Program-made: the position numbers and the translations under genes
The notes under the pieces: model-generated
What the model saw: only the letters and a program-made list of their open reading frames with translations
What the model was told of the DNA's origin: nothing
Database searches by the model: none
Part shown: one piece after another, positions 18,826 through 43,138 of the stretch
Numbering within the stretch: position 1 is the first letter of the stretch
Layout: every line of letters starts with the position of its first letter
NCBI GenBank assembly: GCA_963714425.1
Contig: CAVQOI010000005.1
Location: 19,218-83,217 of the forward strand
Reading direction: 5' to 3'
From: an uncultured Chloroflexia bacterium
GTDB taxonomy: Bacteria > Chloroflexota > Anaerolineae > Anaerolineales > UBA4823
Length of the DNA stretch: 64,000 nt

Positions 18826-18826
18826 A

Positions 18827-19287: not shown

Positions 19288-19896
19288 GTGAAACTTTTCT
19301 CTCTAGGCAGGGTTATTATGAATGAACCCTGCCACCATAAGGTGAAGTCTGTGGCAGAGCTCAAAGATGAGGCCATACTAAGTCTGGCGTCACAAGGTGA
19401 CGGAGAAGCCTTCGGAGAACTTTACCAGCGCTACGTCAGCCGGATTTATAACTATATCTATTATCGGACAGGGAACGCCAGCGACGCCGAAGACCTAACT
19501 GCCCGTGTCTTCTACCGGGCTATGCGTCATATTGGAACCTACCGTGATCGTGGTTTACCTTTTTCAGCCTGGCTTTACCGGATCGCCCACAACCTGGTGG
19601 CAAACTGGCACCGCGATAATAGCCGTCGCAAGGAAATTCCTCTCGAGGAAGGCGTGCATGGGAATTTAGGCGGGAGCCATCCAGAGAGTGATCTGCTCAA
19701 ATGGGAAGAAAGGGAACGGTTGATGCGAGTGATCCGTACCCTATCCCCTGAAAGGCAACAACTATTGATCTTAAAATTCGTTGAGCATATGTCCAATTCA
19801 GAGATTGGTCTGATTATGGGACGGTCTGAGGGGGCAGTCAAGAGCCTGTATCACCGGACGCTCCTGGCACTTCGAGATGAGTACAGTCATTTATAA
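19288..19896 (+). CDS. RNA polymerase sigma-70 family (ECF-type) sigma factor
   Basis: Region 2 (YQRYVSRIYNYIYYRTGNASDAEDLTARVF) and region 4 HTH (ERQQLLILKFVEHMSNSEIGLIMGRSEGAVKSLYHRTLLALR). The true start may be the ATG at 19318 (MNEPCHH). Confidence 0.8.
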   Translation: MKLFSLGRVIMNEPCHHKVKSVAELKDEAILSLASQGDGEAFGELYQRYVSRIYNYIYYRTGNASDAEDLTARVFYRAMRHIGTYRDRGLPFSAWLYRIAHNLVANWHRDNSRRKEIPLEEGVHGNLGGSHPESDLLKWEERERLMRVIRTLSPERQQLLILKFVEHMSNSEIGLIMGRSEGAVKSLYHRTLLALRDEYSHL

Positions 19897-25037: not shown

Positions 25038-26969
25038 CTACGCACCTTGCTCCTGACCGGGCTCGAGCTGGTGGTCCAGTATTTCTGCGATGTCCAATAC
25101 CTGTACCTGCTCGCCTAAACCCTTGGAGCGAATGGCATCGTCAAACATGAGCAGGCAGTAAGGGCAAGCTGTAGCTATTGCATCCGCCTTAGCACTCAGC
25201 ACTTCATCTAAGCGACGATGATTGATGCGTGTCTCTGCATCCGTTTCCAACCACATCTGACCGCCCCCTCCGCCGCAACAAAAACTATTCTCCCCTTTAC
25301 GTGCGAGCTCTACTCGTTTGACCTTTGATTGATCGAGCAGCTGTCGGGGTTGGGCGTAAATATTGTTATAGCGCCCCAGGTAGCAGGAATCGTGGACAGC
25401 AAACCGGGCTTGTGCTCCATTGCCGTTAGCTGGGGACATCATGCCTGGCAGTTGCAATTCAGCTAAGAATTCGGTATAGTGTTGGACTTTGAAATTCCCG
25501 CCCATTTGCGGATATTCGTTCTTCAGCGTATTGAAGCAGTGTGGGCACTGGGTGACGATCCTATTGAACTTGATTTTTGAGAATACCTCAATGTTCTGTT
25601 CGGCGAAGGTCTGGAATAGATATTCATGTCCCATCCGCCTGGCAGTCTCTCCACAGCACATTTCATCAAAGCCAAGAATACCGAAATCAACACCAGCTTT
25701 GACCAGCAGGCGAGCAAACGATCGGGCAACTTTCTTATTGCGATCGTCGAAAGCGAAAGCGCATCCCAAGAAAAGCAGCACGTCCGTCTCGTCGCCTGGA
25801 GCTAATTCGCGTAATTCGAGCCCTTCCGCCCATGCTAGCCTGTCTTCTGGGGGCATCCCCCAGGGGTTGCCCTGACGCTCCATGTTTCGCAATGTGTCCG
25901 CGACCGATTTAGGTAGTTTTCCGGTTGTCAATGCCTGATAGCGGCGCAAATCGATGATGGCATCTACCGGGTTGACGAAGGCGGGGCACTTCACCAGACA
26001 GGCTCCACAGGTTGTGCACGACCAGGCGAAATCCTCCGGGAGAACCTCTCCTAAGATCTCACTGTCTGGGTGCCCATTAGGGCTGACCAAAGTATCGAGC
26101 ATGCCAGATCTGAGCGATTGGATCAGGTTTTTTGGGGTATATGCCATACCGCTGATGGTGGCGGGACAGGCCTCTTCACAGCGCCCACAGCGCACACAAG
26201 CATCGAAGGATAATAGCTGGATACTCTGGAATTCTGTGATCTTGCCCACACCCAGCTTCTCGGCATCATCAATATTTTCAATCTTGCTTAATGCACCCAA
26301 TTTTCTTCTCGGGTGAACGAGGATCTGTAGCGGTGTGAAAATTAGATGGCGCAGCTTGGTAAATGGGATGCTGGCAACCAAAGCCAAACCCAAGCCTATA
26401 TGGGAGTATAGAAAAACCGGGTGCAGACTGGCTGCCATTTCTGGTGTCATACCAAGGGTGCGTCCGAAGTGCGCAAGTGCGTTGCCAACCGGCGACCAGC
26501 TGGCCCAGGCAGGTGAGGTGGAAAGGAATCTGGCAGCTTCTGTGGCGAAGCCCACAAGCGGAAGAAGACCGAGTAGAGTGAGCGCGTAAGCATCATCCCA
26601 GCTATTTTCTAGCGTTTTCGGGCGTGCAATAAAGCGCCTGATAGCTGCCATGAAAACACCCAAAATTATGGCTACGCCAGCAATATCCATAATCAGCTCA
26701 TACCCAAGGTAGGCAGCGCCGCGTGGAAAAGGCAGCTCAACAAATGGGATAAAGAGCTGCATTTGCATCAAGTTGATGGCGGTTCCTAACACTTGAACGG
26801 TCACGCCCCAGAAGATAAAAGCATGCATGATGCCAGGGTAAATCTTCTTATAGAGGCGTACTTGACCGAGGGTATTGACGAAGAATTCTGATAAATACGG
26901 CTTGAGGGTTTCTAGCGATTTTCTTATATCCCATCTTCTAGGAGTCGTTGATAGCGTCTTTGTGGTCAT
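25038..26969 (-). CDS. Membrane-bound HdrD/DsrK-like Fe-S reductase (NarI-like TM domain, 2x[4Fe-4S], two CCG domains)
   Basis: N-terminal 5-6 TM region with conserved His (IMHAFIFWG, YSHIGLG, LRHLIF). Ferredoxin motifs CVRCGRCEEACP and CTTCGACLVKCP. CCG-type Cys motifs (LGCAFAFD...MCCG...CPHC and FCCGGGGG...CPYC). Confidence 0.75.
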   Translation of the reverse strand: MTTKTLSTTPRRWDIRKSLETLKPYLSEFFVNTLGQVRLYKKIYPGIMHAFIFWGVTVQVLGTAINLMQMQLFIPFVELPFPRGAAYLGYELIMDIAGVAIILGVFMAAIRRFIARPKTLENSWDDAYALTLLGLLPLVGFATEAARFLSTSPAWASWSPVGNALAHFGRTLGMTPEMAASLHPVFLYSHIGLGLALVASIPFTKLRHLIFTPLQILVHPRRKLGALSKIENIDDAEKLGVGKITEFQSIQLLSFDACVRCGRCEEACPATISGMAYTPKNLIQSLRSGMLDTLVSPNGHPDSEILGEVLPEDFAWSCTTCGACLVKCPAFVNPVDAIIDLRRYQALTTGKLPKSVADTLRNMERQGNPWGMPPEDRLAWAEGLELRELAPGDETDVLLFLGCAFAFDDRNKKVARSFARLLVKAGVDFGILGFDEMCCGETARRMGHEYLFQTFAEQNIEVFSKIKFNRIVTQCPHCFNTLKNEYPQMGGNFKVQHYTEFLAELQLPGMMSPANGNGAQARFAVHDSCYLGRYNNIYAQPRQLLDQSKVKRVELARKGENSFCCGGGGGQMWLETDAETRINHRRLDEVLSAKADAIATACPYCLLMFDDAIRSKGLGEQVQVLDIAEILDHQLEPGQEQGA

Positions 26970-27400
26970 GCCTCGCCTCCTACGTAGACCTCATCACCGG
27001 CCACCGATACAGCTAGTGGAGCTAGCGCCTTTGGAGGTGGACCTGAGATTACATGACCGTCCAAAGGATCAAAATATCCTTCATGGCATGGACATACGAT
27101 TTGAGATATTTCTGGATCCCATTTGCAGATGCAGGCGAAGTGCGTACATACTGCTGAATATGCTCGCAGACCCTCAGGGGTATTGACCACCAGGGCTGGA
27201 TAACGCCCAAAACGGACTGTCTTCGCCATCCCGACAGGAAGCTCTGAGACTTTGCTGACCAGCACCGGCTCTGATGGCATCTCCTCCAGATTGGGGGGGT
27301 AGAAGAAGGCAACCACGGGTCCAAATACCGCCGCCAGACCGGTGGCAGAGAGAGCTTTTTTGGCTAAGGAAAGAAATTCGCGGCGTGATATCTGGCTCAT
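26966..27400 (-). CDS. Rieske [2Fe-2S] protein with twin-arginine signal
   Basis: MSQISRREFLSL is a Tat motif. CTHFAC...CPCHEG is the Rieske CxH / CxxH pair. I prefer the start at 27400, which has a GGAGAGGTGA RBS. ATGA overlap with the downstream HdrD-like gene. Confidence 0.85.
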   Translation of the reverse strand: MSQISRREFLSLAKKALSATGLAAVFGPVVAFFYPPNLEEMPSEPVLVSKVSELPVGMAKTVRFGRYPALVVNTPEGLRAYSAVCTHFACICKWDPEISQIVCPCHEGYFDPLDGHVISGPPPKALAPLAVSVAGDEVYVGGEA

Positions 27401-27402
27401 GT

Positions 27403-27804
27403 CTAGCTCACCTCTCCCCAAATCGTTAATGCGATCAGCAGCACCATCCCAACAATGACAGCAATAAGCCGTGTCGTGTAGATTTTTTTGGATGTGTCCG
27501 GCTTACGGTCAAAGAAAGGCCAAAGCGCAATGATTCCGACCCCAATTACGGGTAATACTGCACCAATAGTTTTTGGGATGTATTTCAACAGCTGGTATAG
27601 AGCCAGGAAATACCATTCCGGTTTAACATGAGCGGGAGTGTCCATTGGGTCGGCGGGGTCGCCCAAACCGATCGGGACGAAGAAACCCAGGATTGCTATG
27701 GCAACTATCACGAAGGTAACGCCCAACACAACCCGGAATTCGGTGCGTACGTGATCAGGGTAGAAAGGAATAGATTCTTCTTCGGTCGCGTGGAGTTCAG
27801 CCAT
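27403..27804 (-). CDS. Cytochrome b C-terminal domain (b6f subunit IV-like)
   Basis: 133 aa with three TM segments and the PEWYFLALYQLLKYIP motif. Confidence 0.8.
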   Translation of the reverse strand: MAELHATEEESIPFYPDHVRTEFRVVLGVTFVIVAIAILGFFVPIGLGDPADPMDTPAHVKPEWYFLALYQLLKYIPKTIGAVLPVIGVGIIALWPFFDRKPDTSKKIYTTRLIAVIVGMVLLIALTIWGEVS

Positions 27805-27828
27805 TAATATCTCCTAGAATTTTAGCGC

Positions 27829-28833
27829 TCACAGCGGTTTAGCAACACCTTGACGGCGCACCATCAAGAAATGGGATCCCATAAAGACCAGGGTCATGAT
27901 CGGGATGACGATGACATGCAGACTGTAGAACCGGCTCAGAGTCAAGGCACCCACATCCCAACCCACACGCAGGAAAACAAGCGATAAGTTGCCAATCACT
28001 GGGATTGCTCCGGCGATCTCTGTACCCACCGTGGTTGCCCAAAATGCACGCTGGTCCCAGGGGAGCAGGTAGCCAGTGAAACCGAAGCCCAGGGTCAATA
28101 TAAGCAGGATCACACCACTCACCCAATTAAGCTCCCGAGGAGCCTTGAACGCCCCCATGACAAAGACTCGCAGCATGTGGGCAGTGCACATGACAATCAT
28201 GCCATTAGCTGCCCAATGGTGGATAGCCCGGATGGCAGCCCCAAAGCGCACCTGTGTCTCAATAAAGAGGATGCTTGCGTAAGCAGCCTCAGGTGTGGGT
28301 TTGTAGTAAAAAGCCAGCATGATACCGGTGATAGCCTGGACGACAAAAAGGAATGCGGTAATGCCTCCCAGACAGTACCACCAGCGTAAGGCAAATGTCG
28401 GGACTGGCTTGTTCAGAACTTTGGAAAGCGGATCACGGATGGAGTAGCGTTCATCGACCCACTCGAAGGCACGGAGCTGGAGCGGTTTCCAGGGAGCGCG
28501 GGTGACCCAGGCGCTGGCGCTGCGATAAACTCCCATTACGAACACCAGCCCGACCATTCCGAAGAACGTCCACCGCACCAGTGGTGTCCAGAGACCTTTA
28601 TTCTCTCCGCTGATATGGCAGTGCAAGCACGGGTCTCTTTCCGGCGGCGGGATTGTGGCAGCGGCACTCGGGTCATGAGATACATTCTGAACGATTGACC
28701 AGGCTGGTATGGAGGGGTCTGGCGCGGTCGCCATCGCCTTGCCATGGGCGTTCATGAAGATTGCCCCAGCAAGCCCAAGGACAAGCAAAACAGTGAAGGA
28801 TAGTAGGAGGATGCGCGGGGAACGATTTGTCAT
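27829..28833 (-). CDS. Cytochrome b (b6-like N-terminal domain) with an N-terminal extension carrying a c-type haem motif
   Basis: Cyt b core (WWYCLGGITAFLFVVQAITGIMLAFYY, AIHHWAANGM, GYLLPWDQRAFWATTV, SLHVIVIP). The N-terminal TM helix is followed by CLHCH (CxxCH). Confidence 0.8.
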   Translation of the reverse strand: MTNRSPRILLLSFTVLLVLGLAGAIFMNAHGKAMATAPDPSIPAWSIVQNVSHDPSAAATIPPPERDPCLHCHISGENKGLWTPLVRWTFFGMVGLVFVMGVYRSASAWVTRAPWKPLQLRAFEWVDERYSIRDPLSKVLNKPVPTFALRWWYCLGGITAFLFVVQAITGIMLAFYYKPTPEAAYASILFIETQVRFGAAIRAIHHWAANGMIVMCTAHMLRVFVMGAFKAPRELNWVSGVILLILTLGFGFTGYLLPWDQRAFWATTVGTEIAGAIPVIGNLSLVFLRVGWDVGALTLSRFYSLHVIVIPIMTLVFMGSHFLMVRRQGVAKPL

Positions 28834-29173: not shown

Positions 29174-29821
29174 TCAGATCTCGATGATTTTCTTCTGGAT
29201 GGCGTATTTGATCAGGTCGCCACGGTCATGAAGGTCCAATTTGCTCATCAGGTTAGTGCGGTGAGATTGGACCGTCTTGACCGAGATCGTGAGGATGCCG
29301 GCTATCTGTTTGGTGGTGTAGCCTTCCGCGATCAATTGTAAGACTTCATGCTCCCTCGGAGTGAGCCCATCATCAACCTGAGGTTGCAGTTCGCCCCATC
29401 GCAGATAGTCCTCAATAACCATGCGCGTGATGGCGGGCGATAAGACTGCCTCTCCACGATTGACTGTACGGATGGCGCCGATCAGATCGCGCGCAGCAGC
29501 ATCTTTGAGGATATAACCCATAGCTCCACAGGCTAACACCTGGCGGATATATTCTTCGTTTTCGTGCATGGTGAGGATGAGCACCCTGGTTTGGGGATTA
29601 TCGCGCTTGATCTGGCGGGTAGCTTGAAGTCCATTCAACACTGGCATAGCGATATCCATGAGAACAACATCTGGCTCAAGTTGCGAGACCATCTGCACAG
29701 CTATACGACCATCGTCTGCCTCACCCACAACAACCATATCACTCTCACTCTCAAGGAGTGAGCGGATACCATCCCGCAGGATTGTGTGGTCGTCGGCGAT
29801 CAAAATGCGAATCTTTTGCAC
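29174..29821 (-). CDS. NarL/FixJ-family response regulator (REC + LuxR HTH)
   Basis: ILIADDH...DVVLMDIAMP...K in the receiver domain. The C-terminus has LTPREHEVLQLIAEGYTTKQIAGILTISVKTVQSHRTNLMSKL. Confidence 0.85.
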   Translation of the reverse strand: MQKIRILIADDHTILRDGIRSLLESESDMVVVGEADDGRIAVQMVSQLEPDVVLMDIAMPVLNGLQATRQIKRDNPQTRVLILTMHENEEYIRQVLACGAMGYILKDAAARDLIGAIRTVNRGEAVLSPAITRMVIEDYLRWGELQPQVDDGLTPREHEVLQLIAEGYTTKQIAGILTISVKTVQSHRTNLMSKLDLHDRGDLIKYAIQKKIIEI

Positions 29822-29822
29822 G

Positions 29823-30878
29823 TTAGGCTACCTCGCCATTAATCACGGGCATAGTGACCTCGAGGGAAGTTCCCCGTCCGGGTTTTGAGTCCAATCTCAC
29901 ATTGCCACCAACCAGCTCAGCGCGTTCGATAATTCCAACAAGCCCCCACTGCTGCAAACGAACGGCACACGACGAGATTTGTTCCGTATTGAAGCCATGT
30001 CCATCGTCTTCAATGTGCAACCGAATGATATCATCACCTCTTTCCAGAGAGATTTTAGCACTACCAGCATTCGAATGTCTGACGATGTTGGTGACTGCTT
30101 CCTGTGCAATACGAAAGAGTGTGGTTTTGATCTCCTGGGAGAGCTGAGCAAATTCATCGGTGGCATTAAAATCAACACGAATGCCTGCTTCTTCTAATGA
30201 ATTGCGCGCATACCAACGGATTGCAGGTACGAGACCGAGGTCATCGAGAATGGTCGGGCGCAGATCGTGTATGGTCTTGCGCAAATCGCTCAAAGTCACT
30301 TGCGCTATATTGCGTGTATTGGTGAGCTTCTCTCGAATTCCCGAATCCTCTGGGGTCAGCTGATTTTCGAGGTGCTCGAGGTTGATAATCAGCATGCTCA
30401 ACGCTTGTCCTGTGTCGTCATGAAGGCTGCGGGCGATGCGTTTGCGTTCTTCCTCATGCGCATTAATGGCACGTTCTGATAGGTGTCGCAGCTGCCGGTT
30501 TTGGGCCTCAAGCTCAATGACCAATGTGTTGAGACCCGCGGCGATCTGGCTTATGTCTGGCGCTGCAGCCTGTAAGAATTCTGGTGGGATGTAGGTCTCG
30601 CCAGTATGGATTTTTTCAACCGCATTGGACAAGTCGATTAGGGGACGAAGTGCGAGTTTTATCAACCAATAGTTGAGAGTGATCGAAAGCAGCGTACCAA
30701 TGGTGGCAAAGAGGGCGATCAAGCTGATATCTGCAGCCTGGTCGGTCAGCAAGCGAGTCAGCAATGTCCCGCCAATTGCGCCTATAACGATGATTATCGA
30801 ATTACCGATGGCAATTTGCTTGAAGAGGGGTTGGCGGATAAATGGGCGCCGCAGGAAATCGAACAGGGATGAGCGCAT
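29823..30878 (-). CDS. Sensor histidine kinase (2 TM, HAMP, HisKA_3, HATPase_c)
   Basis: H-box ERKRIARSLHDDTGQAL (NarX/DegS type). ATPase N/G boxes (EAVTNIVRHSNA, DDGHGF, GLVGIIERAELVGG). Confidence 0.8.
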   Translation of the reverse strand: MRSSLFDFLRRPFIRQPLFKQIAIGNSIIIVIGAIGGTLLTRLLTDQAADISLIALFATIGTLLSITLNYWLIKLALRPLIDLSNAVEKIHTGETYIPPEFLQAAAPDISQIAAGLNTLVIELEAQNRQLRHLSERAINAHEEERKRIARSLHDDTGQALSMLIINLEHLENQLTPEDSGIREKLTNTRNIAQVTLSDLRKTIHDLRPTILDDLGLVPAIRWYARNSLEEAGIRVDFNATDEFAQLSQEIKTTLFRIAQEAVTNIVRHSNAGSAKISLERGDDIIRLHIEDDGHGFNTEQISSCAVRLQQWGLVGIIERAELVGGNVRLDSKPGRGTSLEVTMPVINGEVA

Positions 30879-31112: not shown

Positions 31113-31967
31113 CTATAGGAAACTTTCTAATAAAGAACCTACCTCAGCCATAGAAAATACAGGACCATCTACACAAACCAGTTTCTCACCCAGGTTGCAG
31201 CGACCGCATTTTCCGATGCCACAATGCATGCGCGCTTCAAGAGTTACATAGTTCTGGTCAGGTGTGAAGCCGAGCTTCTCAACGAGGATCTTGTTCACAA
31301 AGTGAATCATGATGGGCGGGCCGCAAGTAATCGTGATTGCGTTCTCTGGTACGGGTGCGACTCGATCCAGCAAATCCGTAATCAGGCCGACGTGATGGTC
31401 CCAATGGGAATCGGGGACATCTACGGTGAGATGCAATTGGGTGTCGGGAGCAGAGCGCCAGCTTTGGTACTCGTCAGTAAAAACCAGCAAGGAGGGGTGT
31501 CTTGCTGCCCAAAGGATCGTCAGGTGGCCGTAGTCCTGGCGGTTATTCAAGACATGTTGAATAACCGGGCGCAAGGGTGCCCCGCCTATCCCACCACCGA
31601 GGACGACCAGATCTTTGCCTTTAAAATCCTCCATGGGGAACCAATTCCCAAGAGGACCACGCACACCTATGATATCGCCAACACCCAGCTCGTGCATCTC
31701 TGTTGTAACCGATCCCAGGCGTTGAACGGCAAACTCCAGGGGACCACCATTTGGAGCAGAGGCAAAACCAAAAGCTGCCTCACCCACGCCAAATGCAGAT
31801 ACGAACGCGAACTGCCCAGGTTTATAGGAGCGAAAATGCTCGCTCCCTCCGTTTAGCATTTGCACTCCAAAGAGCTTGATCTCGGACCCAAGGTCTCTGG
31901 TGAAAACGAGTTTACCCAGGTAGGGCTTCATCGGATTATCGTGGTTATTTTCCGTATCTCGCGTCAT
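31113..31967 (-). CDS. FAD/NAD(P)-binding oxidoreductase with C-terminal [2Fe-2S] (FlxA / HydG / AsrB-like)
   Basis: Ferredoxin-reductase-type fold (PGQFAFVS, GPLG, VVLGGGIGGAPL). C-terminal CGIGKCGRCNLGEKLVCVDGPVF. Confidence 0.7.
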   Translation of the reverse strand: MTRDTENNHDNPMKPYLGKLVFTRDLGSEIKLFGVQMLNGGSEHFRSYKPGQFAFVSAFGVGEAAFGFASAPNGGPLEFAVQRLGSVTTEMHELGVGDIIGVRGPLGNWFPMEDFKGKDLVVLGGGIGGAPLRPVIQHVLNNRQDYGHLTILWAARHPSLLVFTDEYQSWRSAPDTQLHLTVDVPDSHWDHHVGLITDLLDRVAPVPENAITITCGPPIMIHFVNKILVEKLGFTPDQNYVTLEARMHCGIGKCGRCNLGEKLVCVDGPVFSMAEVGSLLESFL

Positions 31968-32971
31968 GAGGCCACCTCCGCCATGTCAGCAAGCACTTCT
32001 CCAATATCGATATTGACAGGGCACATCTCAATACAGCGTCCACAGCCGGTACATGCCATTGGACCGTACTGCTCTGCATAGTAGTGAAACTTACACATAA
32101 AGCGATTACGCAGACGTTGGCTTGTGGAGGCGCGTGGGTTATGACCCCCAGCAATCCGACGATAGGAGGGACTGGTGCAAGTATCCCAACAGCGAATGCG
32201 CTCGTATTCGGATTTACCGTCACCACCCGTTAGCGCTTCATCGCGCACGATGAAACACCTGCAGGTAGGACATACATAACCACATATGCGGCAGCTCAGA
32301 CATCGCTCTGCCAAACGCTCCCAGTAAGCATCCGTGAAACGCGCAGACCAGCTTATCGTCTGGGGAGATGGGATCTTGGATAGATCCCGCCTATCGATGA
32401 TGGGTGGTACAACCACCTCGCCAGTAACTGGTTTGAGGCGATCTGATAGGAGCTGGTTGCCTTTTTCAGTCACAATTTGGGCGAGGTAACCTCCATCAGT
32501 TTCGGTAAGCATGATGTCCATGTCCTGAGGATCATCTGGAAACCCTCCAACACTGGTACAAAAGCAGGTTTCGCCCATCTCGCGGCATGCGAGGCCAATC
32601 AGGGTTGTATTTTCCCGACGCTTGGCATAGTACGGATCAGATGGCTCCATCAGGAACATCTCATCCAGGATCTTCATCCCCCTGGCGTCACATGGGCGGA
32701 CACCAAAGATGACGACCTCACCTTCAGGCAAGGTCTCGGTAAGCTGAAGCTCTTGCCCGTTTATGTGGATATGTAGCAGCGCCTCCGTTGCAGGGAAGAA
32801 CACTTCTTTTATGGATAGTGCAGGGCGCGAAAACTTCCAGGCGATTTCCGACGTGGTTCCCACCTGGCGGTAACGAAGGACACCTTCATCCCGGGTGGGA
32901 GCAACAAGATTCGATTCTTGTGCTAAGTTATCGAGTATTGCGGAGAGATCTGCTTGGGATAGGAACTTCAT
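31964..32971 (-). CDS. 4Fe-4S dicluster protein (FlxB/C, HydB, AsrA-like)
   Basis: CLSCRICGYVCPTCRCF and CTGCGRCIEMCPVNI. 4-nt overlaps with both neighbours. Confidence 0.65.
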   Translation of the reverse strand: MKFLSQADLSAILDNLAQESNLVAPTRDEGVLRYRQVGTTSEIAWKFSRPALSIKEVFFPATEALLHIHINGQELQLTETLPEGEVVIFGVRPCDARGMKILDEMFLMEPSDPYYAKRRENTTLIGLACREMGETCFCTSVGGFPDDPQDMDIMLTETDGGYLAQIVTEKGNQLLSDRLKPVTGEVVVPPIIDRRDLSKIPSPQTISWSARFTDAYWERLAERCLSCRICGYVCPTCRCFIVRDEALTGGDGKSEYERIRCWDTCTSPSYRRIAGGHNPRASTSQRLRNRFMCKFHYYAEQYGPMACTGCGRCIEMCPVNIDIGEVLADMAEVAS

Positions 32972-34329
32972 GGCAGCTGCTCCTCTCCGTTCAGGATTGT
33001 GACGAATGGTGATGGGACTGGCTCCAGACCGGCACGGTGCCCGAATACTGTCTGCATCTCCTGGATGAGTTTCCCGTTGAGCAAGCTAATCGGGATCTCC
33101 ATCGGACACACACGCTCGCACTCGTGGCAATCCACGCAACGACCAGCCAGATGATATGCTCTTCCCAGGTGGAAGGTGCGTTTCTCATTTGCATTGATGC
33201 CCATGCCTACCCAGAGAGAGTCATCTCGCTCGTACAAGCAGGTGGGGCAGGCACACATCGGACAGACCTGGCGACAAGCATAGCAGCGGATACATCGATC
33301 GAACTGCGACAGCCAATATTCCATACGCTCTGGAGCTGACTTAGCATCCAGCTCGGAAAGCCGCGGGGGAATCACAAGCTGAGGATGCACTTCTGGGGCA
33401 TCGCCGACCAGGGTGTCGTATACAATGGGTATACGCTGATCACATTCCTGGCATCGCTCCTGGAGACTGCAATTGTCGCTGTTCACTTCTCGCATCCCCT
33501 GGCAGGCCACTCCAATCACATGAACCTGACCCCGCTCAAACCGATTTTCAGCGAGCAACACGTTTATCGCCCGGCTGTCACACGGTTTTGCCACGATGGC
33601 GATGGGTTTTTTGGGTTCTGATCCTGCCTTTGTCCCCGGAGGGTAGAGGGTCGAGTGCAGGTAAGTCGTCAGGTTATGGGAGCAGTCCTGGTTCCAAACT
33701 AGGCGCTGGACCTCTGCCGGATTGCGGACAAACGCTGGGCGTGTGCGCCCATGCGTACCAGACTCATAGCCTATTACAACGCTCACTTCGCCTGTGGAAA
33801 GCAACTGGCGCGCTGTATCCTGGATCAACACGGCCACATGGGATTCATCAGGAGGCGCAACCAGTCTGGCTGTCGAAGTCTCTGTATTGAAATTAGTTCT
33901 TACTGGATCGTGGTCTCGCTGGCTTAATCTCCATTTCACTGGTCCAAGTGAACGCACCTTGTCTGTGAACTCGTTTACGATGCGACTGAAGCGCTCACCT
34001 TCAGAAGCGGAAACGTAATCGAGCCGCAGCCTTTCGGGCTCCAGCCCGGTAAAAGCCATGAGCGATTGGAGAATTGGCAGGCGCTTGGCTGTGCGATGAT
34101 TGCCAGTGTCATAATGGCATTCACCGACGTGGCAGGCGAGGACAAGCACACCATCTGCCCCTTGGTCAAAGGTACGCATGATTATCTCGGGAGCGACACG
34201 TCCAGAACAGGGGACGCGCACAGCACGCACATTTGCTGGAGATTTCAGCCGAGCGATACCAGCTGTATCAGCGCCTGTATAGCTACACCAGGTACATAGA
34301 AATGCAATGATCTTAGGTTCGTATGGCAT
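32968..34329 (-). CDS. MvhD/FlxD-domain protein fused to an Fe-S (2x[4Fe-4S]) module
   Basis: The N-terminus KIIAFLCTWCSYTGADTAG...VRVPCSGRVAPEIIMRTF..GADGVLVLACHVGECHY is an MvhD/FlpD domain. The C-terminus has CIRCYACRQVCPMCACPTC and CVDCHECERVCP. Confidence 0.7.
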   Translation of the reverse strand: MPYEPKIIAFLCTWCSYTGADTAGIARLKSPANVRAVRVPCSGRVAPEIIMRTFDQGADGVLVLACHVGECHYDTGNHRTAKRLPILQSLMAFTGLEPERLRLDYVSASEGERFSRIVNEFTDKVRSLGPVKWRLSQRDHDPVRTNFNTETSTARLVAPPDESHVAVLIQDTARQLLSTGEVSVVIGYESGTHGRTRPAFVRNPAEVQRLVWNQDCSHNLTTYLHSTLYPPGTKAGSEPKKPIAIVAKPCDSRAINVLLAENRFERGQVHVIGVACQGMREVNSDNCSLQERCQECDQRIPIVYDTLVGDAPEVHPQLVIPPRLSELDAKSAPERMEYWLSQFDRCIRCYACRQVCPMCACPTCLYERDDSLWVGMGINANEKRTFHLGRAYHLAGRCVDCHECERVCPMEIPISLLNGKLIQEMQTVFGHRAGLEPVPSPFVTILNGEEQLP

Positions 34330-34340
34330 TCCACGACCTC

Positions 34341-37300
34341 CTAAGTACTTACGATTCCCGGGACTATCGGCATGGAAGTGGCAGGCACATCCATATCCAG
34401 AGCTCCGAGCATCTCATTAATGATCTGGCGATCATCGTAGTGGATCAGGCTCATGGCTTTATTTGGACAAGCTGCAGCGCAAGTACCACAGCCTTTGCAC
34501 AGGAAGCCTTTCACTACAGCGACTCCATCCTGAAGCTCGACCGCCCCATAAGGGCAAGCGTAGGTGCATTGCCCGCAACCCGCACAGCGGACTTGATTGA
34601 CAACAGCAATGGATGGATCCAAAGCGATCGTACCCTGGTCTATCAGCGAGAGAGCAGCAGCGGCTGCGGCTCCTGCCTGGGCGACACTATCGGGGATATC
34701 CTTCGGGCTCTGGCAGGCGCCGGCCAGGTAGATCCCTTCGTTCGCCGTTTCAACGGGAGCGAGCTTGGGGTGGCGCTCGAGAAAGAAACCATCGCGGCTG
34801 CGGCTAAGACCAAAAGTGTTGGCGACGCGGGAGGAATCATCGCGCGGCTCGAAACCGGTAGCGAGGATAACCATATCCACTTCGACATGGTCTGGCTGGT
34901 TATAGAAACTCTCATCCCAGGAGACACGTAGCTTTCCATTCACACGCTCGACGCTCCGTACTCTCCCGTGGTAGAAGTTGACACCCTTCTTTCGTGTGCG
35001 GTTATAGAACTCCTCATAATCTTTGCCGAAGGTGCGCATATCTCGATAAACTTCGTGGACTTCGGCGTCCACATAGTCATGTACCAGCTGGGCAAATTTC
35101 AAGGAATACATGCAACATGCACGCGAGCAATACTCATTGGTTTCCGTGTCGCGGCTACCAATACAATGCACAATGGCGACACTTTTCGGAGGCTTGCCAT
35201 CGGTAAGCAGCACTTTTCCACTGGTTGGACCGCTGGCGTTGATCAGTCGCTCAAATTCCATCGCAGAGACAATGTTGTCAAGCTTGCCATAGCCAAGTTC
35301 GGGAATGCGGGCAGGATCGAAATCCTTAAAGCCAGTCGCCAGAATGATCGTACCGACCTTAATGTCGATGGTCTCATCCTGCATATTGTGATCGATTGCG
35401 CCGCGCTCGCACGCTGCCAGGCACTCCAGGCACTCTGAACAGATGCCACAGCGCAAACATCGCTCAGCCTCGCTCAGCGCCTCTTCCTCGCTCATGGTCA
35501 GGTCGACCTCGCGGAAATTGTGAACGCGTTCTTGCACGGGGATGCTTCGTATGGGGACACGCCCAGCCAAGGAGGCCTCCCCGTTGTCAAACTTTTGCTC
35601 GATCTCTTCCTGGGTCAACTGGACTGTAGGCAGCTTGCGTGGTTCCTGAAGGCCGTTTTCGCCGCGCAGATAACGGTCAATACTGCGTGCGACGCGGTGA
35701 CCTTCGCCGATGGCATCGACAACAAAGAAAGTAACGCCGCGATGGACGTCGCCAGCGACAAATACACCTCGTTGTGTGGTCATCATATCCGCATTGCTCT
35801 GGATGCCCACGGGGTAGCGTGTATTGATGCTGCCATCGGGTGGCAGGAAGGAGAAATCCGGTCCCTGACCAATTGCCCATATGACCAGGTCGGCGGGAAG
35901 AATATGCTCGGTGCCAGGGATTTCATCCATATCCGGACGCCCCTGCTTGAAGCCTCGGAAGTTGACCTCGACACTGCGCACACCAAGAATCTTATCTTCT
36001 TTCACCACAATTTCTTTGAAGGTCCTGGAGGGGCATAAGATCACGCCTTCCTCTTCAGCAACACCGACCTCCCAGTCGAAACCAGGCATCTCGCCGCGCG
36101 GTTCCAAACAAGCCATACGTACCTCATCCGCGCCTAGACGCAGGACAGTTCGGGCAGTGTCTAGGGCGACATTTCCGCCACCCAGGACCACGACTTTCTT
36201 ACCGCTTAAGTCGATCTTCTCACCGAGTGTAACCTGGCGAAGCAGTTTCAAGCTGAGCCAGTTGTCCGGATGGTTCGAGTTACGGATAGGCAGCTTTTTG
36301 GCGGAATGAGCGCCAGTCGCAACAAGAACGGAGTGATAGCCGTTCTCGAGTAGGGAGGGGATGTCATCTACCCAGGCGTTCAGGCGAAGATCGACGCCCT
36401 CCTCAATTACCTGCTTGATCTCCCAATCGAGCATATCTGTTGGCAGCCGGTGAGGGGGGATACCGACGCGCATCATCCCGCCTGCAACGGGGAGTGCATC
36501 GAAGACGGTAACCTGGTGTCCTAATCGCACCAAGTCAAGAGCGGCAGTAAGCCCTGCTGGACCTGCCCCGATAATGGCGACCTTTTTCCCAGATTGTGGG
36601 TGGTTGTGCTGGAACGGGGTGCCAACCAAACTTTTATCACGCATCTGGGGTAATTCATGCCTGTGCTCGTACGCCCAGTCTGAGACGAAGCGCTTTAAGC
36701 CCATGATGTTCACGGATTCATCATACTTGCCTCGGCTGCACATATCCTCGCAGTGGTGATTGCAGACCCGCCCGCAGACAGATGGGAAAGGATGCTCCCT
36801 GCGAATCGCCCAATAGGCGTCTGCATAGCGTTTTTGACCAATGAGAGCGATATATCCCTGCGCGCGCTGGTCGGTAGGGCAGGCACTCCTACAAGGAGCA
36901 ACGCCTAGTTTTTGGATGGCGTAAGCCCCCGGAACTGCCTGGGCGGAGAATCGGTAAGATGCTTTGCGTGTGCTGAGGCCCATATCGAACGGGTTGGAGA
37001 TGTCAACAGGGCAAACTTCTGCGCATTTCCCGCATCCAGTGCATTGGGATTCATCGATATAACGTGATTTGCGGTGCACGCGCACATCGAAATTCCCAAC
37101 ATAACCAGAAACCGATTGGACCTCGCTGTAGCTCAGTAAGCTGATGTTTTCGTGGCGTCCAACGGACACCATTTTTGGTGTGAGTATTCAAGCCGCGCAG
37201 TCAAGCGTGGGGAAGGTCTTATATAGCTGAGCCATATGCCCACCGATGCTTGGCTCACGCTCTACAAGGTATACGTGCTTCCCAGCGTCTGCGAGCCTGA

Positions 37301-37781
37301 GGGCAGCCTCGATCCCAGCAATGCCTCCACCAACCACTAGAGTAGATGGGAGCATGTCAACATTGCGCTGCTCCAGCGGCTCGTGATAGCGTACTCGCCG
37401 GACAGCAGCTTCGACCAAACTCATGGCTTTATTGGTCGCCATATCCCGGTCGTCGATCACCCAGGAGCAATGCTCACGGATATTTGCCATCTGGAAGAAG
37501 AAAGGATTGAGTCCGCCTTCCATGCAGGCTTTTCTAAAGGTCGGCTCATGCATCAACGGGGTGCAAGAAGCCACCACAACCCGGTTCAAACCGTACTCAC
37601 GAATATCCTCTTTGATCAGATCCTGGCCCGGATCGGAGCACATATAGGTGTAATCTTTAGCTAGAATGACACCATCCAGAGTCCGGGCGTGGTCAGCGAC
37701 CGACTTCACGTCCACCGTGGCGGCAATATTGGTGCCGCAATGACAGACGTACACGCCGGTTCTGATTTTGGAGAGGTTCAT
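34341..37781 (-). CDS. hdrA: HdrA-like flavoprotein with in-frame UGA (predicted Sec198) and an inserted GltD/NfnB-like NAD(P)H module; read-through product 1146 aa
   Basis: Track ORFs 37188..37781 and 34341..37172 are in the same frame, separated only by TGA (37188-37190): TLDCAA-TGA-ILTPKMVSVGRHENI. The N-terminus has VVGGGIAGIEAAL (FAD). An insert at about 35460-36930 has CRSACP...CGRVCNHHCEDMC plus IIGAGPAGLTAA and VVLGGGNVALD, which is GltD-like. Confidence 0.7.
37153..37171 (-). promoter_or_regulatory. Candidate bacterial SECIS hairpin for the long hdrA
   Basis: The minus strand reads U GGUGUCC GUU GGACGCC A, an 8-bp stem with a 3-nt G-containing loop, starting 16 nt after the UGA. Confidence 0.5.
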
Positions 37782-39820
37782 GCCGGCACCTCCTCTAAAG
37801 GCATTGTGCGCAATGAGTTGAGCAACGCGCCTTCTATTTCAGCCATAACCTGCTCATAAGTAAACCCATGCTGGAGAGCAGCGCCAGCCGGACAAGCGCC
37901 CGCACATGCGCCGCATCCCTTGCAAAGAACTTCATTGATGAGAGCCACCTGCCTCCCTTCAAAGTCAACCATCTCGATGGCACCGTATGGGCAAAGCCCC
38001 TCGCAGGTGCGGCAGCCACCGCATTTTTCAGGGATTACGTAAGTAGTAAATGGCTCCAATGTGACATGCCCAGCATCCAGCATGGATAAGACACCCGCAG
38101 CAGCGGCACCACCCTGGGCAACGCTATCGGGGATATCCTTAGGTCCCTGGCAGGTCCCCGCAAGGAATACTCCATCGGTGGCAGTTTCCACGGGGGCTAG
38201 CTTGGGATGCTTCTCTAAGAAGTACCCGTCGGGGCTTAGACTAATGCCGAAAGTCTTGGCTACCTCAAGCTGGTCGCTATGCGGTTCGAGCCCAGTGCTA
38301 AGCACCACCATATCCACCAGGACATCATCAGGCTGCCCGGTAAAAATATCTATGGTTGAGACTTTCAGGTGCCCATTCTGCTGCGAGACATGAATTTTCT
38401 CTTCGAAGCGATGGAAATGAACACCATTTTGGGCAGCGCGAGTGTAGAAACCTTCATAATCCTTACCGAAGGTACGCATATCCCGGTAAAACTGGTAGAC
38501 TTCCGCATCCACGTAATGACGGATAAGCTCTGCCAGTTTGAGTGAGTACATACAGCAAACCCGCGAGCAGTATTCATGATGTTGCAGATCGCGGCTGCCG
38601 ACACAATGCAGGATTGCGATCCGCTCAGGCTTGCGCCCGTCTTTGAGCACCACTTGACCATTTGTGGGTCCACCGGTATTGATCATGCGTTCGAATTCCA
38701 TGCCGGAGACTACATTGTCGAGCTCTTTATAACCATATTGGGGAGCTTTGTGGGGGTCGAAATCTTGAAATCCAGTTGCCAGGACAATGCCACCGACTTC
38801 GACATCTATTAATTCATCCTTTTGCTCAAAGTCGATCGCCTGGCGTTGGCAGAACTTCTCGCAGGCACGACATTTGCCTCGTAGGAAATATGCACAGTTC
38901 TCAGTATCGATTATCGGTACGCGCGGCACAGCTTGGGCAAAGGGGAAGTAGATCGCCGGGCGATTGCCTAATCCCATATCAAATTCGGAGGGGATCTTTT
39001 TCCATGGGCATTTTTCAACGCATGCGCCGCAGCCAGTGCAATTTTCTTCGTTTACATAGCGCGCTTTTTTACGGATCTTCACGTTGAAATTTCCCACATA
39101 TCCCGATACCGATTCAACCTCACTGTTGCTCAGCAGAGTGATGTTTTCGTGGCGTCCCACGGACACCATCTTCGGAGTGAGAATTCAAGCCGCGCAGTCT
39201 AAGGTTGGAAATGTTTTGTACAACTGCGCCATGTGCCCGCCGATACTGGGCTGGCGCTCAACTAGATAGACATGCTTACCTGCGTCCGCCATGCGAAGGG
39301 CAGCTTCAATACCGGCGATCCCGCCACCAACGACTAACGCTGCCTGCTTGACGGTAACCTGCCGGCTGGTGAGCTCTTGGTTTAAGGCTACCCGGCGCAC
39401 GGCTGCAGACACGAGGGCTTTTGCTTTCTGGGTTGCCAGGACCATATCATCGGAAACCCAGGAGCAATGCTCGCGTATGTTTGTCATCTGGAAGAGAAAT
39501 GGGTTGAGCCCTCCCTCAGCGCATGCCCGCCGAAAGGTGGTCTCGTGCATCAGGGGTGAGCATGAGGCAACCACAACTCGATCTAAGCCCTCATTTTGTA
39601 TATCATCCTTGATGAGAGCCTGACCTGGATCAGAACACATGTAGGCGTAGTGGCGCGAGACTGCAACACCGTCGAGCGTGGATGCAAAATCAGCGACTGC
39701 AGCAACATCCACCATGCCTGCGATGTTTGTACCGCAGTGGCAGACATAAACGCCGATCTTTTCCCCGCAACCAGCGCGCAGAGAGGGTGGTCCGGTTTGG
39801 GAGCTCTGCTTTGGCTTCAT
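37778..39820 (-). CDS. hdrA: HdrA-like flavoprotein with in-frame UGA (predicted Sec212); read-through product 680 aa
   Basis: Track ORFs 39185..39820 and 37778..39169 share one frame, separated only by TGA (39185-39187): TLDCAA-TGA-ILTPKMVSVGRHENI. It has VVGGGIAGIEAAL, four ferredoxin-type Cys motifs, and an AAGGAGG RBS upstream of the ATG at 39820. Confidence 0.7.
39150..39168 (-). promoter_or_regulatory. Candidate bacterial SECIS hairpin for the short hdrA
   Basis: The minus strand reads U GGUGUCC GUG GGACGCC A. Stem and spacing (16 nt after the UGA) are identical to the paralog; only the loop base differs. Confidence 0.5.
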
Positions 39821-39909
39821 CCGGCTGACCTCCTTAAATGGGTATTGTGTTGTTGGTCATAATTGGGCATTGGTGCACCGTTAACTCGCTACAATAATTC
39901 TTAACGATG

Positions 39910-39918
39910 ATTATACCA
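39910..39918 (-). promoter_or_regulatory. Candidate extended -10 promoter (TGGTATAAT) for the hdrA/flx-like operon
   Basis: The minus strand reads TGGTATAAT about 90 nt upstream of the ATG at 39820, in an AT-rich divergent region. No clear -35 box. Confidence 0.3.
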
Positions 39919-40110
39919 AAGCTTGTGAAAAAAAGCACTAATTACTTTAGTTATTTATCTTTTTACCAATTGGAAATCAAGACATCTGGTCTCAACATCC
40001 AACCAGTAGCATGTCGTTTCGATGAGAAGCTAGATAAACATTCATCCTTTCTTTAGAGTGCGTCGCAGCAAGTGCGGTAAAATTAATTGACACCTATGCC
40101 AAGGAAAATT

Positions 40111-41562: not shown

Positions 41563-42336
41563 ATGAAAATAGCGATCACTGGTAAAGGTGGGGTTGGAAA
41601 GACAACACTGGCGGCGCTCTTGGCGCAGTCCTATGCAGATGCAGGCCGTCAGGTACTGGCAGTTGACGCTGACCCATCACCGTGCCTGGCTGGTGCCTTG
41701 GGATTTCCAGACACTCTCCGCACACGCCTGCACCCAATTTCTGAGATGGATGAGCTGATATTTGAACGGACTGGTGCAAAACCAGGCAGCATTGGAGGGT
41801 TTTTTACATTAAACCCGCAAGTGGATGATATCCCTGAGCGTTTTAGCATTGCAAATCGAAATGTAAGTCTGCTGGAAATGGGCGCGGTGGATATAGGTGG
41901 CACTGGGTGCATCTGTCCCGAAAGCGCATTACTTAAGACGCTCTTTACCCACCTGCTCTTTCGTAAAGAAGATGTTCTCATTCTTGATATGTACGCGGGT
42001 GTGGAACATCTGGGCAGGGCGACGGTGGATTTCGTGGACGCCATGCTGGTTGTCGTGGAACCGACGCGACGCAGCCTGGGCACCGCAGCTCAGATCAAAA
42101 AGCTGGCGAACGATATCGGCTTAACACAGCTCTGGCTTGTAGGGAACAAGGTCCGAAGTCCGGAGGAAGTGACATTTCTCGAGACAGAAACACCCGGTCT
42201 ACCCGTCCTGGGCTTTATGCCAGCTGATATGGCGGTTCAGGAGGCAGACCGGTTGGGCATCGCGGTTTATGACTATGTGCCATCATTGCGGCAGGCAGCT
42301 GAACAGATGGCAGCAATGCTGGTAGAGACGGTTTAA
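41563..42336 (+). CDS. cooC: CooC-type (MinD/ParA-fold) nickel-insertion ATPase
   Basis: MKIAITGKGGVGKTT deviant Walker A, DADPS, a CxC metal motif (GCICPE), and VGNKV. Confidence 0.7.
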   Translation: MKIAITGKGGVGKTTLAALLAQSYADAGRQVLAVDADPSPCLAGALGFPDTLRTRLHPISEMDELIFERTGAKPGSIGGFFTLNPQVDDIPERFSIANRNVSLLEMGAVDIGGTGCICPESALLKTLFTHLLFRKEDVLILDMYAGVEHLGRATVDFVDAMLVVVEPTRRSLGTAAQIKKLANDIGLTQLWLVGNKVRSPEEVTFLETETPGLPVLGFMPADMAVQEADRLGIAVYDYVPSLRQAAEQMAAMLVETV

Positions 42337-42352
42337 TGATCGAGGTGAAAGT

Positions 42353-43138
42353 ATGTCTACAACAATAGCTTTAGCGGGAAAAGGGGGTGTGGGTAAGACG
42401 ACAATTGCCGGCATGGTAGTTAAATATCTTGTTAGACAAAAGGATGGAGCTGTGATTGCCATCGATGCAGACCCAAGTAGCAATTTAAATATGGTCTTGG
42501 GTTTGGATCTGGAATGGACGGTTGGGGATATCCGCGAGGATATGCTCTCACAAGTGAAAGACTCATTGACCACTGGCGGGGCAGCCATGGGCAGCATGCC
42601 CGGAGGCGTTTCTAAGCGGGATTATCTGGATTACCAGATTCGCTCTTCACTGGCGGAAGGCGATCATGTAGACTTGATCGCTATGGGGCGATCGGAGGGA
42701 CCGGGGTGTTACTGCGCTGTAAATCACAACTTGAGGGAAGTGATTGACACCATCAGCAAGAACTACAGCTACGTGGTGATCGATAACGAGGCAGGCATGG
42801 AACACCTTAGCCGCAGGACGACAAGGGACGTGGATCACCTTCTCATCGTATCTGACCCGACGCAGCGCGGCATTATGGCAGCACAGCGTATTAGTGATCT
42901 GCGGAATGAGCTGGATGTCCAGGTGAAAAACGCCTACCTAATACTGAACCGCCTGAACGGCAATATGCCTGAGCCATTACGACAGCGCATTGAAACGCTA
43001 GATATACCCCTTTTAGGTATTGTGCCGGCTGACGGCGATATCGCAGAATATGAGTTTAGCGGGCGACCTCTGGTCGAAATGAAGGAAGATGCTCCAATTT
43101 ATAGAGCTGTAGCTGGGATGATGGAGAAGATCTTATAG
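42353..43138 (+). CDS. Second CooC/AcsF-type ATPase paralog
   Basis: IALAGKGGVGKTT, IDADPSSNL, CxC (GCYCAVN) and VIDNEAGMEHL. Confidence 0.65.
   Translation: MSTTIALAGKGGVGKTTIAGMVVKYLVRQKDGAVIAIDADPSSNLNMVLGLDLEWTVGDIREDMLSQVKDSLTTGGAAMGSMPGGVSKRDYLDYQIRSSLAEGDHVDLIAMGRSEGPGCYCAVNHNLREVIDTISKNYSYVVIDNEAGMEHLSRRTTRDVDHLLIVSDPTQRGIMAAQRISDLRNELDVQVKNAYLILNRLNGNMPEPLRQRIETLDIPLLGIVPADGDIAEYEFSGRPLVEMKEDAPIYRAVAGMMEKIL

Follow-up and report, generated by a model that had tools for sequence, protein, structure and literature searches.

Flavoproteins of the HdrA type that carry an internal GltD-like module for reduced nicotinamide adenine dinucleotide (phosphate) (NAD(P)H) have been described under several names. 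The architecture was named HdrL in Desulfobacterium autotrophicum in 2009 (PMC2702500), a name used in the literature for Desulfurivibrio as well, and HdrL was found in the proteome of Syntrophobacter fumaroxidans, where HdrABC/HdrL were abundant with sulfate (PMC5947623). It was also described as an HdrA-NfnB fusion (NfnB') in ANME-1 in 2022 (PMC9012536), and as 'type III HdrA', with structure predictions, in 2025 (PMC12054007). The gene considered here, hdrL, lies on the minus strand of a 64,000-nucleotide stretch of DNA (the window; contig CAVQOI010000005.1, positions 19,218 to 83,217, assembly GCA_963714425.1) from an uncultured Chloroflexia bacterium of the Anaerolineales. In the preferred reading, to which a probability of about 0.85 is assigned, its product is an HdrL with an intact HdrA core, whose inserted ferredoxin domain is extended by a permuted GltD/NfnL-family cassette acting as a non-bifurcating pyridine-nucleotide port, here probably for NADH. 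The identity of the protein as an HdrL is held with high confidence, and the electron wiring and the role of the cassette with moderate confidence. An initial annotation, made from the sequence alone, had not recognised the architecture as characterised. It had in fact already been named and is common, so that the window protein is a new member of the known, widespread, biochemically uncharacterised HdrL family and its architecture is not new. That annotation had also allowed for a common, already characterised family; the family is common and described, but no biochemical characterisation of it was found.

HdrL1-3 of D. autotrophicum HRM2 and Sfum_0824 of S. fumaroxidans, compared here by published description, resemble the window protein in being large HdrAs with an inserted NAD(P)H domain similar to the small subunit of glutamate synthase; some contain selenocysteine (Sec), and they are soluble proteins encoded beside mvhD (PMC2702500, PMC5947623). 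In these sulfate reducers the genes lie beside dsr or hdrABC/fdh, whereas the window gene belongs to an Anaerolineae host and is accompanied by a plain HdrA and a HydBG/Flx-like module, with no HdrBC. Type III HdrA and the HdrA9-11 proteins of ANME-1 and Bathyarchaeota share with the window an insert of ~500 aa, GltD/NfnB-like and at the same site (PMC9012536, PMC12054007). The predicted structure of type III HdrA puts the cassette on the ferredoxin-reducing domain, and it was proposed from structure prediction that the cassette blocks the ferredoxin site and that NADH replaces ferredoxin (PMC12054007). Type III HdrA was reported as archaeal and rare (nine sequences), whereas the present survey finds the architecture widespread in Bacteria; the window member also differs in its Sec and in a CLE motif instead of YRR at the nucleotide site.

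Architecture of the hdrL product

Two minus-strand open reading frames (ORFs), 37188-37781 and 34341-37172, have one in-frame TGA between them (37188-37190). Translation of 34341-37781 with TGA as Sec gives a single chain of 1146 aa, in which the only in-frame UGA is at residue 198. Domain annotation of this read-through protein, as the initial annotation had proposed, places HdrA models on both flanks (NF040770, E 2.9e-247, and a second model, NF041778, each at residues 7-304 and 780-1129) and a GltD-family model over the insert (NF009410, PRK12771, residues 288-810, E 2.8e-139); Pfam domains are Fer4 at 241-260, Fer4_20 at 294-373 and Pyr_redox_2 at 399-693. In a MAFFT alignment with the plain hdrA that lies upstream, hdrL is collinear up to AQAVP (residue 284) and alignment returns at the Cys-rich motif before ATGF(K/Q)DFDP, in agreement with the breakpoints first read from the sequence. 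About 495 residues between these points (~35442-36929) are unique to the long copy, close to the ~480 aa originally placed at 35460-36930. All the GltD-type Fe-S motifs and both dinucleotide folds quoted at that stage were located in the insert (APCRSACP at 295-302, CGRVCNHHCEDMC at 336-348, IIGAGPAGL at 403-411 and VVLGGGNVALD at 531-541), but the N-terminal Fe-S motifs do not supply the full set of GltD cluster ligands, since the first CxxC (C775 and C778) falls, through the permutation, at the C-terminal end of the insert. The proposal of an NAD(P)H flavoprotein module within an HdrA of the bifurcation type, in a chain that also contains Sec, is borne out by the domain, PDB and Foldseek matches, and the domain matches are far stronger than chance would give. 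GltD proper was rejected as an identity (217 bits with TIGR01317 against a cut-off of 447.7, and 216 with TIGR01318 against 483), the module being embedded in HdrA. The coordinates of these and neighbouring features are collected in Table 1.

Table 1. Features of the hdrL locus, with positions counted in the window and residues numbered in the HdrL product unless stated otherwise
Feature	Coordinates	Strand	Description or basis
hdrL	34341..37781	-	1146-aa selenoprotein gene (predicted), stop codon included; HdrA with inserted GltD-type cassette; read-through translation, family matches
HdrA N-terminal domain, first part of thioredoxin-reductase-like FAD domain and first half of inserted ferredoxin domain	36930..37781	-	Residues 1-284; NF040770 match 7-304; 5odc_A 4-290
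UGA, predicted Sec198 (DCAAU)	37188..37190	-	Cys in homologues; Sec197 in methanococcal HdrA at same aligned position
SECIS-like 8-bp hairpin	37153..37171	-	Starts 19 nt past UGA; RNA fold z = -2.3
First ferredoxin motif of HdrA inserted ferredoxin domain, C247xxC250xxC253xxxC257P	37008..37043	-	Invariant in 42 aligned HdrL; Pfam Fer4 241-260
Inserted GltD/NfnL-family cassette	35442..36929	-	Residues ~285-780; absent from paralog; PRK12771 match 288-810
Fe-S subdomain of cassette	36684..36899	-	Residues 295-366: C297, C301, C336/C340/C344/C348, Lys363 in GLKRFV; Fer4_20
FAD dinucleotide fold, IIGAGPAGLT (403-412)	36546..36575	-	Motif
NAD(P)H dinucleotide fold, VVLGGGNVALD ... VRMAC-LE-PRGEMPG (531-567)	36081..36191	-	CLE in place of YRR; 42- and 72-sequence motif comparison
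Permuted segment 740-778	35448..35564	-	Equals N-terminal ~45 residues of NfnL/GltD: helix, then C775xxC778; C-terminal end of cassette
Second ferredoxin motif, C781xxC784xxC787xxxC791	35409..35441	-	Starts two residues past cassette CxxC; C784/C787/C791 align with paralog KCRACEKFC
Rest of HdrA FAD domain (K895 included) and C-terminal 2x[4Fe-4S] ferredoxin domain	34344..35408	-	Alignment to 5odc_A
Upstream plain hdrA	37778..39820	-	680 aa, Sec212 (own numbering); stop overlaps hdrL start (ATGA)
MvhD fused to FdhB-C-terminal-like Fe-S domain	32968..34329	-	453 aa; Pfam FlpD 7-129, Fer4_8 343-412 (own numbering)
HydB/ShyB/AsrA/FlxB-C-like Fe-S protein	31964..32971	-	335 aa
HydG/AsrB/FlxA-like FAD/NAD(P)H/[2Fe-2S] protein	31113..31967	-	284 aa; second pyridine-nucleotide site of operon

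The HdrA core is complete around the insert, with the N-terminal Cys-cluster domain, the flavin adenine dinucleotide (FAD) domain and the C-terminal 2x[4Fe-4S] domain all present. None of its Fe-S cysteines is missing, and the C195/U198 pair and K895 are also retained; K895 and C195/C198 are invariant. Alignments to 5odc_A and 8rvu identify K895 as the equivalent of Lys409, which lies at the FAD N5 in HdrA of Methanothermococcus thermolithotrophicus (PMC6405883). Since the core ligands are conserved, the bifurcation-type core looks intact and functional. The HdrA cores of the methanogen MvhADG-HdrABC complex (5odc) and of the genome's own hdrCBA-mvhDGA locus are 45-60% identical to it, with the ligands, the Cys/Sec pair and the FAD Lys kept; unlike HdrL, these systems have no GltD cassette, an inserted ferredoxin domain that is free for ferredoxin or polyferredoxin, and HdrBC together with a hydrogenase.

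The insertion site is inside this inserted ferredoxin domain, flanked by C247-C257 and C781-C791; in methanogen HdrA the low-potential branch, which faces ferredoxin, ends in this domain (PMC13518236). Six cysteines at the junction (C775, C778, C781, C784, C787 and C791) are invariant in 42 sequences. Only three residues lead from the last cassette ligand, C778, to the first HdrA ligand, C781, so the Fe-S chains of the cassette and of HdrA must abut.

Selenocysteine

In full-length HdrL homologues a Cys aligns with U198, and the Cys-x2-Sec pair beside the FAD corresponds to that reported for Methanococcus HdrA (PMC13518236). The 8-bp stem 19 nt past the UGA is shared by hdrL and the upstream hdrA. 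A scan of 34000-40000 against Rfam (E <= 1) found neither a selenocysteine insertion sequence (SECIS) nor any other RNA family. The genome encodes tRNA-Sec and SelB scoring above the curated cut-off. The reading as Sec, made without an Rfam match, is adopted because of the alignment, the hairpin, the tRNA-Sec and SelB, and hdrL is accordingly predicted to be the gene of a bacterial Sec-HdrA selenoprotein.

Gene callers cut hdrL at this UGA, and most database homologues are ~940 aa long and start after it, as would be expected if the long ORF were artefactual, through chimeric assembly of hdrA and gltD/nfnB or through the joining of two genes across a real stop. Such an origin is extremely improbable. 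The same collinear layout, with identical junctions, is kept in more than 60 independent genomes or metagenome-assembled genomes (MAGs) of many phyla, on which ground misassembly and false fusion were rejected; in addition, full-length homologues have Cys at the UGA position, Sec machinery is present in the genome and the six junction cysteines do not vary.

Identity and permutation of the cassette

Compared with PDB sequences by phmmer, the insert matched best 9bov_A (E 5e-82) and 9n5u_A (5e-79), the NfnA subunit of Bfu-type NfnABC, followed by 8oh5_C (2e-66), StnC of Sporomusa ovata StnABC; the matches are to the embedded GltD/NfnL-like domains of these proteins. Next came NfnL (5jca_L, 4e-59; 4ylf_B, 4e-58), then GltD (~1e-45) and dihydropyrimidine dehydrogenase. 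An AlphaFold2 model of HdrL was built from a 42-sequence alignment (mean predicted local distance difference test, pLDDT, 86.2; predicted TM-score, pTM, 0.77). With Foldseek, its HdrA part matched 5odc_A with TMt 0.85, and its insert matched 9bov_A with a root-mean-square deviation (rmsd) of 3.4 A over 490 columns and NfnL 5jca_L with TMt 0.78 and rmsd 2.8 A.

The order of segments separates these relatives into two kinds. NfnL residues ~7-47 (5jca_L 7-47; 4ylf_B 6-42) align to HdrL 740-780, and NfnL 49-473 to HdrL 294-708; judged from these alignments, the cassette is circularly permuted relative to NfnL/GltD. The GltD-like domains of StnC and Nfn-BfuA are collinear with the HdrL cassette throughout in the phmmer alignments. 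The string 'permut' is absent from three structural papers, PMC10482914 and PMC12018979 among them. Besides being its best match in sequence and fold, StnC and the NfnA of Bfu-type NfnABC (9bov, 9n5u) share with the cassette the permuted order, the Fe-S entry 'PC..CP', the exit after 'ER.NFREV...RCL.C' and a Lys at the proximal cluster, and in them too a larger Fe-S protein harbours the inserted module, which serves there, as is proposed for HdrL, as a port for nucleotide. They differ from HdrL in their host, which is NuoG/Fdh-like and feeds a Bfu bifurcation core based on flavin mononucleotide (FMN), and in having a YRR motif and NADPH where the window HdrL has CLE. StnC Cys114 is Ala in the window HdrL.

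The proximal-cluster Lys is K363, which aligns with StnC K170, the residue at that position in NfnL being Glu (LERFV). It is nearly invariant among the cassettes, of which 42 and 72 sequences were compared. In StnC and Nfn-BfuA the cassette-type FAD is a non-bifurcating entry for NADPH (PMC10482914, PMC12018979). By this analogy, a Lys of the StnC type at the FAD-proximal cluster, instead of the NfnL Glu, argues for a non-bifurcating nucleotide port.

NfnB/NfnL of Thermotoga maritima (4ylf) and Pyrococcus furiosus (5jca) resembles the cassette in its fold, FAD, two [4Fe-4S] clusters, dinucleotide folds and conserved Arg. It is, unlike the cassette, unpermuted and stand-alone, with a Glu at the proximal cluster, a YRR motif for NADPH and an NfnA/S partner, and its FAD is the bifurcation site; ligation by 3 Cys + Glu, canonical order, an NfnA/S partner and YRR are all lacking in the cassette. 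Were the cassette nevertheless a true NfnB/NfnL equivalent, it would be a second bifurcation site, with two bifurcating flavins per chain coupled via low-potential Fe-S branches and the HydG protein of the operon as NfnA/NfnS. The idea of two bifurcating flavins was raised for ANME-1 HdrA9-11 by Chadwick et al. (PMC9012536), and it is in keeping with the good fold match to NfnL (5jca_L, TMt 0.78, rmsd 2.8 A; E 4e-59), with the presence of the conserved Arg, R445 (IPPHRL), and with a FAD/[2Fe-2S] protein of the PyrK family in the operon. This reading is nonetheless quite improbable. Besides the StnC-type Lys, the nearest solved relatives are the non-bifurcating StnC/Nfn-BfuA (E 5e-82 against 4e-59), which have the same permutation. 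By score the PyrK-like protein belongs with HydG/AsrB (206 and 165 bits), its 72 bits with the NfnA-type PRK06222 lying below the cut-off of 220. Its [2Fe-2S] motif offers only Cys ligands (CGIGKCGRC...C), and the [2Fe-2S] cluster of NfnS has an Asp ligand. Most HdrL operons, among 28 loci, have no PyrK-like protein at all.

Nucleotide site and electron path

After the second GxGxxA/G fold, distant HdrLs, NfnL, StnC and Nfn-BfuA have the motif V-x-Y-R-R-x-R-x-E-M-P-A. In the window HdrL and its Anaerolineae relatives at >=73% identity, the corresponding residues are M-A-C-L-E-P-R-G-E-M-P-G-F. The CLE type is found in ~20 of 72 cassettes, including the second copy of this genome. In Rossmann folds, a beta-2 that ends in an acidic residue in place of the Arg pair is the classical mark of a preference for NADH over NADPH. 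Since an acidic residue occupies the Arg-pair position, a preference for NADH would be expected in the window clade, and CLE in place of YRR suggests the use of NADH by these Anaerolineae proteins.

[quoted passage not shown] The cassette would most likely serve as a non-bifurcating port, as in StnC/Nfn-BfuA, and not as a second bifurcating flavin, as in NfnL, and the nucleotide used in this Anaerolineae clade is probably NADH. Pyridine nucleotide would thus replace or join ferredoxin at the low-potential branch.

Several points weigh against this reading. Neither the choice of Lys or Glu as ligand nor the Arg/N5 geometry does more than correlate with non-bifurcating behaviour, and R445 is conserved in bifurcating and non-bifurcating classes alike. 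The acidic marker of NADH on beta-2 is a general Rossmann rule, carried over to HdrL by inference. A third variant, CRGMR...ASFN, which lacks the EMP motif, occurs in the close relatives G175 and G226; such cassettes may bind nucleotide differently or not at all, or have a degenerate site. From the energetic side, low-potential electrons dumped onto NAD+ would be a waste of energy, so the direction and logic of the branch are puzzling. Finally, the literature search returned no purification or assay of an HdrL.

Distribution and evolution

A search of 5.8 billion proteins gave at least 8000 matches to the hdrL product. The best 120 of them are 73-83% identical and mostly ~940 aa long, which corresponds to gene calls starting after the UGA; the named matches among those listed come from MAGs of Anaerolineales or Anaerolineaceae. 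Among representatives at 50% identity, dozens of clusters match end-to-end, and dozens more are proteins of ~1500 aa that match residues 146-1049. Of 301 genomes of the phylum, ~14 have the full-length HdrL form and ~25 the ~1500-aa form.

A survey of genomes for HdrA with a GltD insertion, suggested by the initial annotation, covered the best 80 loci out of 185,579 species genomes and extended the architecture to many bacterial and archaeal phyla. A strict HdrL, with HdrA N-part, insert and HdrA C-part, is present in 18 of the 80, in Chloroflexota, Desulfobacterota, Bacillota, Bacteroidota, Acetothermia, WOR-3, Bathyarchaeia (locus L025) and Hadarchaeota. In about 40 further loci the cassette sits at the identical site in a 'double HdrA'; among the hosts are Smithella, Desulfococcus, Acidobacteriota, Gemmatimonadota, Planctomycetota, Actinomycetota and Promethearchaeota. 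At one locus (L009, G025:C5, 13079-19364) an HdrA N-part (13079-13855), a GltD-like part (16145-17587, 35% identity) and an HdrA C-part (18105-19364) are spread over 6.3 kb, which could represent an HdrA with a larger or composite insertion, or separate genes.

The mvhD gene lies beside hdrL in 22 of 28 HdrL loci; in the window it is immediately downstream. Two operon classes can be distinguished. The first, hdrC-hdrB-hdrL-mvhD, accounts for at least 10 of the 28 and spans many phyla. The second, a five-gene class without HdrBC and always with a plain HdrA, comprises the window and the loci L008, L017 and L077 in Anaerolineae, L019 in Dehalococcoidia and L036 in Hadarchaeota. At L077 (an uncultured Chloroflexota MAG), two HdrL-type units were flagged, one CLE and one CRGMR...ASFN, plus one plain HdrA.

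Quick maximum-likelihood trees were built for the FAD core and for the cassette. In the core tree, the window HdrL clade and that of its tandem plain HdrAs are sisters (Shimodaira-Hasegawa-like approximate likelihood ratio test, SH-aLRT, 99), and the former falls within an HdrA/HdrL group apart from the double type. In the cassette tree, the sister group of the window clade consists of cassettes from double-type proteins of Chloroflexota (99). Because the two trees disagree, either the cassette was transferred from one paralogue type to another or the cores were homogenised. A single insertion followed by vertical descent was rejected, given the strongly supported conflict between core and insert trees. 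The constant junction, in turn, argues for one permuted cassette reused across HdrA types and not for independent captures of GltD.

Operon and genomic context

The operon has the order hdrA(Sec)-hdrL(Sec)-mvhD::fdhB-C-like-hydB-like-hydG-like, its genes being separated by 4-nt overlaps or an 11-nt gap. The upstream plain HdrA is a probable heterodimer partner of HdrL. None of the five operon proteins has a CCG (HdrB) domain or an HdrC part, and promoter and terminator scans gave sites no more numerous than in shuffled sequence. In the Flx system of Desulfovibrio vulgaris, reportedly described by Ramos et al. in 2015, FlxA is said to be HydG-like, FlxB/C HydB-like and FlxD MvhD-like. By domain matches, the window operon resembles the FlxABCD-HdrABC of D. 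vulgaris in having HydG-, HydB- and MvhD-like genes beside hdrA; it differs in the absence of HdrB and HdrC, in two HdrA paralogs (one with an NAD(P)H cassette) and in the fusion of MvhD to an FdhB-C-like domain.

Against PDB sequences, this MvhD fusion matches MvhD 5odc_D at residues 3-134 and FdhB 7bkb_E at 333-440. The last ~110 residues of its ~320-aa extension resemble the C-terminal Fe-S part of the F420-dependent formate dehydrogenase subunit FdhB (7bkb_E, 9t1s_M), and residues ~140-330 have no match in the Pfam and PDB comparisons. The fusion is kept across the five-gene operon class.

Elsewhere in the genome, C8:598416-604893 has the genes hdrC-hdrB-hdrA-mvhD-mvhG-mvhA in canonical arrangement, the HdrA being of the Cys type, so this Anaerolineae genome also encodes a methanogen-like, H2-dependent Hdr complex. 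A second cassette-bearing gene, at C15:133357-136170 (locus L016, C15:131515-139798), encodes a 'double HdrA' of ~1400-1500 aa with Sec (in-frame TGA) and the CLE motif; clustered with it are further HdrA-like genes, two mvhD and a gene for a CCG protein (C15:127404-128102). These are the only two GltD/NfnL-family modules in the 95%-complete genome, both embedded in HdrA-like proteins, and tblastn against all contigs found no stand-alone homologue of GltD, NfnB or SudA.

This context bears on a further reading, in which the five-gene complex without HdrBC is a third class of electron-bifurcating NAD(P)H/ferredoxin transhydrogenase, built on HdrA and functionally analogous to NfnAB and StnABC. 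Speculatively, one nucleotide would react at the HdrL cassette and the other at the HydG/FlxA-like subunit, with ferredoxin at the free domain of the plain HdrA in an HdrA/HdrL heterodimer; the complex would then be the sole Nfn-like activity of this genome. The operon does combine two different pyridine-nucleotide modules with the absence of a CCG/HdrB thiol-disulfide module, and the genome has no stand-alone GltD/NfnB homologue. The five-gene set with a plain HdrA recurs in Anaerolineae, Dehalococcoidia and Hadarchaeota, HdrL being solitary in hdrCB-hdrL-mvhD, and tandem HdrA and HdrL form sister clades, as expected of co-evolving partners. All of this is contextual, however, and the reading is considered unlikely, if not negligibly so. 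Another operon, ~5 kb downstream, encodes an HdrD/DsrK-like CCG protein of the membrane, and the missing acceptor could be a soluble thiol carrier. The same operon type has YRR in Dehalococcoidia and Hadarchaeota and CLE here, and no co-variation of nucleotide motifs was seen between the cassette and the HydG-like subunit, in an alignment that was uninformative. For the hdrA-hdrL-mvhD-hydB-hydG complex with a non-bifurcating cassette, the reading preferred here, it may be speculated that electrons are shuttled among two pyridine-nucleotide sites and ferredoxin.

The CCG protein nearest to hdrL is the membrane protein just mentioned (NarI + Fer4 + CCG, 25038-26969), in a Rieske/cytochrome b operon that lies past a two-component system. 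This cluster (25038-28833, minus strand) encodes a cytochrome b (27829-28833), a Rieske protein (26966-27421) and, as the 643-aa product of 25038-26969, a NarI-like protein with Fer4 and two CCG domains that is HdrDE/DsrMK-like; it could provide a thiol/disulfide or quinone link for the Hdr-like complex. The two-component system, a HisKA_3 kinase and a LuxR-type response regulator (29174-30878), adjoins hdrL in the window. A pair of the same kind is also found beside hdrL in distant Chloroflexota, at L012 and L014 (genus g58, complete genomes of 1.7-1.9 Mb), with 35-44% identity, which hints at a conserved regulatory association with hdrL. On the plus strand, 41563-43138 encodes two tandem P-loop ATPases of the CooC/CbiA family beside cysS; no gene of carbon monoxide dehydrogenase/acetyl-CoA synthase was seen among the ORFs annotated.

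Implications

In methanogens, sulfate reducers, acetogens and syntrophs, flavin-based bifurcation of the HdrA type has a central place in energy conservation. Anoxic sediments and uncultured phyla are rich in HdrL-type proteins, and the reaction that they carry out is a gap in models of anaerobic energy metabolism. The hdrL of the window opens no new category; it is a well-defined member for study, with Sec, a compact five-gene operon and a probable NADH-type site. Testable hypotheses are sharpened by three features of its cassette, namely that it shares with StnC/Nfn-BfuA the form of a permuted, Lys-ligated 'insertable' GltD module, that it appears to have been exchanged between HdrA paralogue types, and that it occurs in two operon classes, one with HdrBC and the other with HydBG/Flx-like proteins and a plain HdrA. 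If the class without HdrBC were indeed a transhydrogenase, it would constitute a new class of enzyme balancing NADH, NADPH and ferredoxin.

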